Part shown: one piece after another, positions 38,396-55,641 of the stretch
Layout of the letters: each line of letters opens with the position of its first letter
Numbering within the stretch: position 1 is the first letter of the stretch
NCBI GenBank assembly: GCA_040755995.1
Contig: JBFMAF010000049.1
Span: 64,001-128,000, forward strand
DNA from: Acidobacteriota bacterium
Lineage (GTDB): Bacteria; Acidobacteriota; CAIWXX01
Length of the DNA stretch: 64,000 bases
Direction: 5' to 3'
Translations under genes and position numbers: made by a program
The notes under the pieces: model-generated
Databases searched by the model: none
Seen by the model: the letters and a program-made list of their open reading frames with translations, nothing else
What the model was told of the DNA's origin: nothing

Positions 38396-38472
38396 TGGTA
38401 GCGGTGCAGGGACTTGAACCCCGGACGCCGCGGATATGAGCCGCGTGCTCTAACCAACTGAGCTACACCGCC
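38396..38472 (-). tRNA. tRNA with CAU anticodon, probably elongator tRNA-Met
   Basis: 77-nt cloverleaf GGCGGTG...TAGCTCAG...CTCATAT...GGTTCAAGTCC...CACCGCTACCA with encoded CCA. Confidence 0.95.
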
Positions 38473-53429: not shown

Positions 53430-54176
53430 TCACATATAGAGGCCGCCGGAGACGTTCAGGACGTTGCCGGTGATATAGGATGCGTAGTCGCTGGCCAGAA
53501 ACGCGGCGGCGTGGGCGATGTCCTCGGCCTCGCCCAGCCGCCTCAACGCGATCGCCTCCTTCAGCTTCTCGATCTGATCGCCCTGCAGTTTCTCCGTCAT
53601 GGCGGTCCGGATGAATCCCGGAGCGATTGCGTTGACAGTGACATTGCGCGAGCCCAGCTCTCGAGCAAGCGATTTCACAAAGCCTATGATCGCGGCCTTG
53701 CTGGCCGCGTAGTTGGTCTGCCCGGGATTGCCCATCATTCCCACGACCGAGGATATGGCGATGATCCGCCCGTATCGCTCCTTCATCATCCCCTTAATCA
53801 GCTCCTTGGTCAGGTAGTAGACAGGGTGGAGATTCACCTTGAGCACCAGGTCCCATTCGATGTCCGACATGCGCATCAGGAGGTTGTCCTTGGTGATGCC
53901 GGCGTTGTGGATCAGGATCTGGCACGGGCCGCTCTGCTCGATGCTCTTGGCGACGGCCGCGAGTGTCTCATCACGATTGGTCAGGTCTACCGCCAGGCTC
54001 TCGACGGCTGCCCCTTTCTCACGAAGAGCAGCCACCGTCTGCCGCAGCGCCTCCTCTTCCTTGTCCAGAAGCAGCAGCTTGCAGTTGGCGCCGGCCAGGT
54101 CGCCGGCAATGGCAGCCCCGATGCCCCTGGCCCCGCCCGTGATCAGCGCACGCTTTCCGGTGAAATCGAGTCTCAT
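53430..54176 (-). CDS. fabG: 3-oxoacyl-ACP reductase
   Basis: TGGARGIG, NAGITKDNL, GNPGQTNYAASK, APGFI; AAGGAG RBS. Confidence 0.93.
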   Translation of the reverse strand: MRLDFTGKRALITGGARGIGAAIAGDLAGANCKLLLLDKEEEALRQTVAALREKGAAVESLAVDLTNRDETLAAVAKSIEQSGPCQILIHNAGITKDNLLMRMSDIEWDLVLKVNLHPVYYLTKELIKGMMKERYGRIIAISSVVGMMGNPGQTNYAASKAAIIGFVKSLARELGSRNVTVNAIAPGFIRTAMTEKLQGDQIEKLKEAIALRRLGEAEDIAHAAAFLASDYASYITGNVLNVSGGLYM

Positions 54177-54357: not shown

Positions 54358-54438
54358 GAGGGGGTCGCGGTGGGTCTCCGTGTCACCGCGTCCGCAGCCG
54401 TGAGCAGGCGCTGTTGCTGGCAACCACAGAGTCGCTAG

Positions 54439-54486
54439 AAAAAGTGAACCGCCAGAGGTCACCGCGCGTTCGACCCCTGGCGGTTC
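54439..54486 (-). terminator. Intrinsic terminator
   Basis: GAACCGCCAG.GGTC / GACC.CTGGCGGTTC stem followed by ACTTTTT on the minus strand. Confidence 0.8.
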
Positions 54487-54710
54487 GGCCAACCCGTTGC
54501 TTTGATGGTGTCTGCGCTCTATCTGTGCCCGACGGCCTCATTTCCGAGTGCCCGCGGTTATCGCTACAGCGGCGCCTGCCCATCAGTCCGATTGATGTCG
54601 GACTCTGTCACAACCCGTTCCCTCGCAGCTCCTAGGCACTGCTCCGGAACGTCTTTCAAGCGGCCAGATTCGCTTTTGCTCTCTAGCTACTCTCCTTTGG
54701 TTAGGCCTCT
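54439..54710 (-). ncRNA. Candidate structured non-coding RNA or attenuator leader, family unassigned
   Basis: Bounded by promoter and terminator; closing stem and at least 6 nested helices; no credible ORF. Confidence 0.65.
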
Positions 54711-54716
54711 GCGTAG

Positions 54717-54745
54717 AATATAGACAGCGCATCGGCACTTGTCAA
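54717..54745 (-). promoter_or_regulatory. sigma70 promoter of the candidate ncRNA
   Basis: TTGACA-N17-TATATT. Confidence 0.75.
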
Positions 54746-54834: not shown

Positions 54835-55641
54835 ATGCGGCGCGCGGTCGAACACGCGGAAACAGCCCGGCCAGGCCGGGCGCTCCTGGGCAAGGCATGC
54901 CTGGTCACCGGCGCAGGCCGTGACCTGAGCGCTGCCATCGCTGACGGGCTGGCCCGTGAGGGGGCGCTCCTGGGAATTCACTACAACCGTAGTAAAGCCG
55001 GCGCCATGCGCCTCCAGCGGCAGATCATCCGGCGAGGCGGCATCGCTCACGTGGTGCAAGCAGACCTTCGCGACGAGACCGCCGTCCGGCGCATGGTTCG
55101 GCAGGCGCACCGCCTGCTCGGAAGGATCGACATTCTCGTGAACAGCGCCGGCCTGTTCTATCGATCCGACCTGTTCGATACTCCGATGCGCTCGCTGGAC
55201 CTGCTCTTCGACCTGAATCTGAAGGCGGCGCTGATTTGCGCGCGCGAGTGTGCCGCGGTCATGACGAGACAGGGGAGCGGCTGCATAGTCAACATCTCGT
55301 CGCTCGGCGCCTTCGAGGCGTGGCCGGGCTACCTGGGCTACTGCGCTTCGAAGGCGGCCCTTGTCTCCGCGACGCGAACGATGGCACTCCAGCTCGCTCC
55401 TGCCATCACCGTCAATTCAGTCGCACCGGGGTTCATCGATCTCCCGTCGGAGCTGAGCCTCGCTGCCAGGCGTCGCATTATCGCCAAGATCCCGGCCGCA
55501 CGCCTCGGGAGCTATGACGACGTCGTGGGGGCCGTGCTGTACCTGTGCCGGTCCCCGTACGTCACCGGACAGGTGCTGCTCGTTGACGGCGGCGCGTCGA
55601 TCAGGCACCAGGCGCCAGGAATAAGCGACCGGTACCGGTAA
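54835..55641 (+). CDS. SDR oxidoreductase, pteridine reductase/FolM-like
   Basis: VTGAGRDL, IHYNRS, VNSAG, YCASKAAL, YVTGQVL.VDGG. Confidence 0.85.
   Translation: MRRAVEHAETARPGRALLGKACLVTGAGRDLSAAIADGLAREGALLGIHYNRSKAGAMRLQRQIIRRGGIAHVVQADLRDETAVRRMVRQAHRLLGRIDILVNSAGLFYRSDLFDTPMRSLDLLFDLNLKAALICARECAAVMTRQGSGCIVNISSLGAFEAWPGYLGYCASKAALVSATRTMALQLAPAITVNSVAPGFIDLPSELSLAARRRIIAKIPAARLGSYDDVVGAVLYLCRSPYVTGQVLLVDGGASIRHQAPGISDRYR

Follow-up and report, generated by a model that had tools for sequence, protein, structure and literature searches.

Is there a gene of its own on the minus strand between fabG and the divergent SDR gene of this Acidobacteriota genome, and what kind of product would it make? 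A sequence-only reading of the window (the whole stretch of DNA that was analysed, 64,000 nt in length, whose positions are used below) had proposed a structured RNA there, either free-standing or acting as a riboswitch. We compared G000, the genome holding the window (completeness 99.8%), with G001 and G002, the other two members of the family, each of a different genus. The host lineage is an isolated, uncultured branch of Acidobacteriota with three known genomes; over the C-terminal half of RpoB, family members share 84-86% identity, and the other sampled genomes reach at most 71%. G001 was assembled from a metagenome, and its contig with the RNA stops just past the SDR gene. From the results below, the region 54437..54711 (minus strand) is most probably a real free-standing ncRNA gene, and its product is very likely an uncatalogued structured ncRNA of about 270-300 nt, restricted to this lineage and forming a new family within a known kind. 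The coordinates of the features are collected in Table 1.

Table 1. Features of the RNA locus and its neighbours (window positions)
Feature	Position	Strand	Remark
-35 hexamer TTGACA	54740..54745	-	inside CCTTGACAAG; invariant in 3/3 genomes
-10 hexamer TATATT	54717..54722	-	17-nt spacer; invariant in 3/3 genomes
Predicted transcript	54437..54711	-	about 272-275 nt including terminator; start predicted from promoter spacing
Domain I, irregular 5' hairpin	54658..54707	-	5' strand is the invariant CAAAGGAGAG(U/G)AGCUAG
Invariant 5' block CAAAGGAGAG(U/G)AGCUAG	54683..54699	-	16/17 positions invariant
P3, variable hairpin	54616..54651	-	same place in all three; sequence fully turned over
P4 (54614-10/54500-496)	54496..54614	-	closes a three-way junction with P5 and P6
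P5, near-invariant 7-bp hairpin AGUCCGA/U(C/U)GGACU	54585..54604	-	variable 6-nt loop
P6 arm	54504..54584	-	directly abuts P5, no linker; starts with GAUG/CAUC (54584-81/54507-04)
3' strand of long-range helix with 5' end (54707-54699)	54487..54494	-	strong in G000 only
Intrinsic terminator	54437..54486	-	stem 54486-54446, 13 bp, plus U-rich tail
fabG	53430..54176	-	TIGR01830 above cut-off; adjoins the RNA in G000 only
SDR (short-chain dehydrogenase) gene, divergent	54835..55641	+	best NCBIfam PRK09134/PRK09135, below cut-offs

Transcription signals

The promoter seen in the earlier reading, TTGACA-N17-TATATT at 54745-54717 (minus), scores 11/12, and one such site was found against a mean of 0.2 in shuffled sequences. 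It is the sole promoter-like site within 1.8 kb, and its form is the one typical of strong promoters genome-wide in G000. The arrangement CCTTGACAAG-N-CTATATT is kept by the copy in each of the three genomes. The promoter is of a near-consensus sigma-70 type. At the other end, the claimed intrinsic terminator was confirmed as a hairpin of -29.2 kcal/mol with pairing probability 1.00, followed by the tail ACUUUUUCU; a simple terminator scan did not have it in its output. Terminators close all three homologues and form with probability 1.00, giving predicted lengths, terminator included, of about 300 nt in G001 and about 285 nt in G002. The RNA is very probably transcribed as a discrete species.

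Could the transcript be an mRNA? The sequence-only reading had noted that no RBS-led ORF is present, and this agrees with our results: the sole Shine-Dalgarno-like site has no start codon behind it, and no reading frame is conserved across the three homologues. A small-ORF mRNA or leader peptide was rejected, since all three lack a start codon at 3-11 nt past AAAGGAG. The invariant AUG of GAUG opens frames of unlike length, one of only 2 codons in G001.

Conservation in three genera

A BLAST search of 100 relatives gave homologues in both other genomes of the family, single copy in each, and G000 also has one copy. Full-length local alignment upheld these two and left two further BLAST matches as chance similarity in coding regions; pairs of homologues reach z scores of 7.8-25 against shuffles. 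When a covariance model was made from only the G001 and G002 copies, it recovered the held-out window copy at 54711-54499 (50.9 bits, E = 4e-14 in 64 kb), which is the only match of that model (E = 5e-12 genome-wide). The two syntenic homologues keep promoter, fold and terminator, which supports the proposal of a multi-junction ncRNA that is free-standing and has no Rfam family.

Is this similarity more than recent common descent would leave? As a baseline we took the four-fold sites in the codons of three orthologous genes nearby; 39/230 of these sites are invariant across the three genomes, as against 16/17 and 22/29 positions in two blocks of the RNA. The binomial p is about 1e-11 for each block; the conserved windows were chosen after the alignment was seen, and hence a correction for 250 windows was made, which gives about 1e-9. 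In the flank past the terminator there is no conserved run of three or more. The RNA was kept over three genera while silent codon sites turned over, and this indicates that it is under selection.

Secondary structure

The window copy folds with a z score of -5.1 with the terminator and -4.0 without it, and none of 200 shuffles was as stable in either case. Without the terminator the three genomes give -4.0, -4.1 and -4.3. In G000 and G002 folding favours the sense strand over the antisense strand. In G001 the two are equally good (z of -4.0 for the antisense and -3.9 for the sense strand), so the strand call rests on the promoter, the terminator and the folds of G000 and G002.

The secondary structure proposed earlier is half right and needs revision. 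Its eight pairings are all complementary (three with a bulge), but only five are in the minimum-energy fold, namely the 5'-3' closing helix, 54687-82/54668-63, 54651-46/54621-16, 54604-598/54591-85 and 54552-46/54539-34. Two others, 54661-56/54505-499 and 54615-10/54561-56, lie outside the best fold and clash with the conserved one, and forcing them costs 4.3 and 9.1 kcal/mol, respectively. The last, 54608-05/54569-66, is seen solely in the alternative forced by 54615-10/54561-56 and also clashes with the conserved fold. The invariant helix GAUG/CAUC (54584-81/54507-04) was absent from that list. The 5'-3' closing helix (54707-54699/54494-54487) stands for G000, where it is strong (-12.2 kcal/mol as a duplex), but in the homologues it is weak or absent (-3.8 and -3.5).

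When the three RNAs were folded independently, one common domain order was obtained. In Domain I, helix P2 is formed by GCU with a downstream (A/G)GC in 3/3 genomes, and each of the three can also form a local 4-bp closing helix (GGCC/GGCC, GAUC/GAUC and GCCC/GGGC); the long-range 5'-3' helix of G000 is 14 kcal/mol more stable than the local one, and the predicted fold of this domain differs between genomes. An A-rich linker in the P4 domain ends in an invariant AG (54606-05). P5 has a single G-C to G-U change in G002. Compensatory changes are found in P6b and P6c, which are followed by a variable P7 branch (54557-54527). The pairing of P3, P4 and P7 is kept despite full sequence turnover. No pseudoknot common to the three homologues was seen.

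For the core pairs, 56 of 59 cells pair (94.9%), compared with 21-36% in slid controls, a comparison that favours the structure because it was drawn from the same three sequences. The percent paired in the core is matched by 47 of 500 shuffles of the three sequences. Covariation amounts to 2 two-sided changes, reached in 258 of 500 shuffles, which for three sequences is not significant.

Comparison with known RNA families

Does the RNA belong to a family that is already known? The earlier reading had found no match to tRNA, tmRNA, RNase P, SRP, 6S, T-box or common riboswitches. Nor is there one to any family of Rfam 15 (4227 models), where only a tRNA scores above gathering in the window. This tRNA-Met(CAT) at 38396-38472 (minus) is also the only RNA that Rfam or ARAGORN gives there. 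G000 also carries a tRNA-Sec. At E up to 10, Rfam gives around the RNA only sub-threshold plus-strand matches touching the terminator end, and over the RNA in G001 and G002 it gives none.

Like 6S, SRP, RNase P and tmRNA, the RNA is single-copy and lineage-wide and has a strong promoter of the housekeeping type. Those four, however, are encoded by separate full-score genes elsewhere in G000: RNase P, 6S and SRP (276.6, 101.7 and 76.1 bits), and the true tmRNA on contig C41, with no tmRNA found by ARAGORN in the window. Their similarity to the RNA does not exceed z of 2.7, against 7.8-25 among the homologues. A frame resembling a tmRNA tag, A-K-A-N-L-A-A-stop (54679-54656, minus), is absent from G001 and G002 and was taken as chance.

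There are other short likenesses, to motifs of T-box, lysine, yybP-ykoY and THF riboswitches, the hammerhead, Y RNA and the tmRNA tag. With the four riboswitches the RNA shares a 3' terminator and, close to its 5' end, a purine-rich AG(U/G)A..GAA internal loop; it differs from them in having no Rfam score, a non-switching terminator and no consistent regulated gene. The T-box antiterminator has a bulge of the form UGGN-ACC before the terminator, and amino-acid-related genes lie downstream. Here the bulge is not conserved in the alignments and the gene context is unsuitable. Nor do the three copies have in common the ligand motifs that are specific to these riboswitch families. Bacterial Y RNAs go with a Ro60/Rsr gene in the genome, usually adjacent; Ro60 (PF05731) was found in 0/3 genomes, with the control matched in 2/14. 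P5 (54604-54585, minus) resembles the Ro60-binding stem of Y RNAs but lacks its bulge.

CsrB/RsmZ sponges have many loop GGA motifs and occur where CsrA is present. The present RNA has merely 5-6 GGA per copy, mostly outside conserved loops, and CsrA was found in G001 and G002 (L092, L093) and was absent from the search results for G000; a CsrB/RsmZ sponge was therefore rejected. With these decoys it does share an own promoter and terminator and GGA in a Shine-Dalgarno-like context (PMC8058203).

There is still the reading that the locus is a diverged member of a known family, a tiny-peptide mRNA, or conserved DNA such as operator sites without a functional RNA. The short likenesses to riboswitch, Y RNA and tmRNA-tag motifs speak for it, as does covariation that is not significant in three sequences. 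We consider it improbable, given that Rfam has no match at E up to 10 in the three genomes, that RNase P, 6S, SRP and tmRNA are encoded elsewhere in G000 and are dissimilar, that Ro60 and a conserved reading frame are both lacking, and that the pairing of P3, P4 and P7 survives full sequence turnover. What was found is what a free-standing structured ncRNA should have: its own promoter and terminator, a structure shared by the homologues, no ORF, and independence of its neighbours.

Genomic context

Does the RNA act on the gene downstream? In G000 this gene is fabG, whose start was measured at 263 nt past the terminator, in line with the roughly 260 bp given before. In G002 it is yceD, and in G001 a convergent hypothetical gene (the G001 genes past the RNA, this one and the trp operon, were named by eye from their translations). 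The homologues accordingly do not precede the same gene class, and the neighbour common to all three genomes is the divergent SDR gene. The downstream gene is different in each genome and convergent in one, which indicates that the RNA acts in trans.

The sequence-only reading had allowed for an attenuating riboswitch for fabG, and this part is not supported. As a cis regulator of fabG and the yceD-rpmF-plsX-fabH operon, the RNA does lie upstream of the operon on the same strand in 2/3 genomes. Also, the stretch separating the terminator from fabG in G000 gave no promoter-like site, so read-through may serve fabG, and in all three homologues the first 6-9 bases (54711-54703) are able to pair with the terminator's 3' strand (54458-54452) if the terminator is forbidden. 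However, the intact RNA of G001 faces the convergent gene, and the operon of that genome is on a separate contig without the RNA. In all three genomes yceD has a promoter-like site of its own before the operon, TTGA(C/A)N-17/18-TAN(C)TT (window 53362, minus; loci L009 and L089). In equilibrium folding, terminator-free folds are less stable by 18.5, 12.7 and 10.4 kcal/mol in the three RNAs; no antiterminator strong enough to compete was seen, the terminator having a probability of 1.00 and the alternatives being 10-18 kcal/mol weaker. The pairing of the 5' end with the terminator 3' strand is too weak to compete at equilibrium and could form only once the hairpin is complete. The varied contexts, the separate promoter-like site of yceD and the fold costs together make cis regulation very improbable.

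Some further observations were made around the locus. In G000 only, fabG lies between the RNA and yceD, with a 263-nt leader (54438-54177, minus) that has no consensus promoter and includes a long pyrimidine-rich tract at about 54360-54305 (minus). The trp operon of G001 starts about 1.3 kb past the RNA (L010 42-143 minus; L056 11212-11800), and a Trp_leader match there is sub-threshold at 19.1 bits vs 41. The proline dehydrogenase ORF has 191 aa in G002 (L057 12878-13453 minus) vs 282 aa in the window and may be frameshifted or truncated. Near SDR homologues of two outgroup genomes (L066 at about 3124, plus; L074) there are promoters with an inverted repeat behind them that resembles CIRCE; they are unrelated to the RNA. 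The neighbours of the RNA are SDRs, YceD, a GDSL-fn3 protein, proline dehydrogenase and a peptidase, all ordinary metabolic genes. Omega RNA, tracrRNA, retron and bridge RNA were rejected, as these neighbours lack a nuclease, a reverse transcriptase and a recombinase.

Phylogenetic range

How far does the RNA extend beyond the family? Covariance-model searches of 397 out of 398 sampled outgroup genomes of the phylum gave no homologue (model R1 on 147 genomes and on the nearest 39, model R2 on 284, the sets overlapping). R1 had 0 matches at E up to 0.05 in the 147; in the 39 nearest by RpoB it had 6 weak matches (best E 0.04), all in long open frames and without the 5' block. The 3 partial matches of R2, at 16-20 bits, are coding or RBS sequence. 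G025, G048 and G151 are unpublished sampled genomes and were counted in the negative tallies only. The 27 next-best SDR homologue loci gave no model match. Within G000, a weak second match (C53) and a look-alike promoter on C40 were both dismissed as coding sequence.

Pattern searches gave the same picture. The hairpin with up to 3 mismatches has 7 extra matches in 400 genomes of the phylum, all in long open frames with the remainder of the RNA absent. The exact hairpin occurs in 8 stretches of GTDB genome contigs, 2 of them true (L050, L055) and 6 chance. In metagenome contigs the two-block pattern found 7 stretches, all chance. Four patterns found 1, 0, 9 and at least 120 stretches in viral contigs, and no homologue was among them, with 80 of the last set scored. 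BLAST against phage and plasmid collections gave no match.

No description of the RNA was found in searches of the open-licence main texts of PubMed Central and bioRxiv; supplementary motif catalogues could hold it. A full-text search with both invariant blocks returned two unrelated zebrafish papers only, and the main text of PMC11109978 does not mention Acidobacteria. It should be noted that the models were made from 2-3 sequences and that the patterns are exact or nearly so; relatives that have diverged strongly may therefore have escaped. That the RNA is so narrowly distributed speaks against a deep, general role.

Possible function

What, then, might the RNA do? A lead is given by AAAGGAG (54698-54692, minus) in the invariant 5' block, which complements the 3' end of 16S rRNA. 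In G002 this end reads CACCUCCUUUCU, so that AAAGGAG makes a 7-base match to the anti-Shine-Dalgarno; the 16S 3' end was not found in the assemblies of G000 or G001. Behind AAAGGAG in G000, ATG is commonest at spacings 7 and 6 (56 and 40 of 752 sites). Each of the three RNAs has UAG (window 54685-54683, minus) at spacing 6 and no start codon at 3-11. The predicted folds leave AAAGGA open in G000 and mostly so in G001; in G002 part of it is predicted to pair. The GCU beside UAG is paired in all three RNAs, and its U is part of UAG.

The computed signals and fold, the common domain order, the purifying selection on two blocks, the independence of the downstream gene and the lack of a coding frame are plain results. 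Built upon them, the best explanation as a whole is a single-copy, trans-acting structured ncRNA, with a partner that reads the P5/P6 core and the 5' purine strand; in our judgement its chance of being right is about even. The single-copy gene would be transcribed from its sigma-70 promoter into an RNA that ends at a non-switching terminator and acts in trans. P5 and P6 may stack coaxially at the three-way junction. Their invariant core, together with the purine-rich 5' strand, would then form a surface for a protein or ribonucleoprotein partner. The RNA may work as a scaffold or decoy, of the kind of 6S, CsrB and OLE and not of the same family, and P3, P4 and P7 would be spacers in which shape alone matters. 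The P5 and P6a stems are invariant in sequence, which suggests recognition by a partner and not pairing alone. Being a Shine-Dalgarno that lacks a start codon, the 5' block makes the translation-initiation machinery the best candidate for the partner. No partner protein was identified, and the adjoining genes are ordinary metabolic ones.

One alternative reads the same 5' block as the purine seed of a base-pairing sRNA, which would pair with CU-rich mRNA leaders, for example opening anti-SD hairpins, the body serving to stabilise it. A strong promoter, a terminator and, close to the 5' end, an invariant single-stranded block make up the typical anatomy of sRNAs. However, the search for mRNA targets of the 5' block in G000 gave nothing outstanding (the best non-self duplexes of -26 to -20 kcal/mol form a smooth tail), and a seed leaves the 22 invariant paired bases of P5/P6 unexplained; this role has an outside chance. 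Another alternative is a ribosome decoy. AAAGGAG would pair with the 16S anti-Shine-Dalgarno and present UAG at the position of the start codon; the untranslated RNA would thereby occupy 30S subunits (or bS21/bS1), its folded 3' domain serving as an anchor or as a release switch. The 7-base match to the 16S of G002, the UAG at spacing 6 in 3/3 RNAs without a start codon at 3-11, and the predicted opening of AAAGGA in G000 and mostly in G001 are consistent with it. On the other side, AGGA is predicted paired in G002, the U of UAG lies in the paired GCU in all three, the 16S 3' end was found in neither G000 nor G001, and such a purine run can be conserved for tertiary contacts. The decoy is unlikely on balance. 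It is likewise unlikely that we deal with a new class of ncRNA which poses as a translation start and captures or parks small subunits (or bS21/bS1), as a ribosome-side counterpart of 6S RNA that one deep lineage of Acidobacteriota has kept throughout.

A quite unlikely reading is an aptamer or ribozyme that acts in trans, with no downstream gene to control and with a pocket where P4, P5 and P6 meet. Invariant bases do cluster at the three-way junction and in purine-rich internal loops, but most of the invariant bases are in stems and not in junction strands, and no ribozyme or riboswitch of Rfam scores. CUGAUG(A/G) is similar to the hammerhead core. That core consists of CUGAUGA, GAAA and NUH in a three-stem topology. 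The hammerhead was nevertheless rejected: the segment reads CUGAUGG in G000 and is paired in P5/P6, the GAC of its 5' side lying in P5.

Coming back to a structured ncRNA with a partner, how does it compare with systems of that kind? The raiA-motif, OLE, ROOL and GOLLD RNAs are structured ncRNAs from stand-alone bacterial genes, and little is known of their function (PMC12286853). The present RNA is like them a stand-alone, multi-helix gene product with a conserved core and variable arms, near in size to raiA (205 nt in the same source) and smaller than OLE, ROOL and GOLLD. Unlike them, it occurs in one family only and has no dedicated partner gene adjoining, and it has no Rfam score to any of the four. 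According to PMC12054373, OLE binds the ribosomal protein bS21 through a Shine-Dalgarno/anti-Shine-Dalgarno mimic in its P6, both strands being held as an internal duplex. A Shine-Dalgarno-like element in an ncRNA, with no reading frame behind it, is shared with OLE (PMC12054373). In our RNA, however, the Shine-Dalgarno strand is invariant and there is no conserved anti-Shine-Dalgarno strand; the strand facing it varies and is largely unpaired in 2/3, unlike that of OLE.

Significance

The finding adds an RNA family that is not yet catalogued and whose conserved core is defined, from a deep, uncultured branch of Acidobacteriota. Its weight is limited by the narrow range of three genomes. The RNA is small enough for synthesis, probing and cryo-EM without culture of the host, and its invariant Shine-Dalgarno without a start is a sharp, testable lead, namely binding of the 30S subunit or of bS21/bS1.
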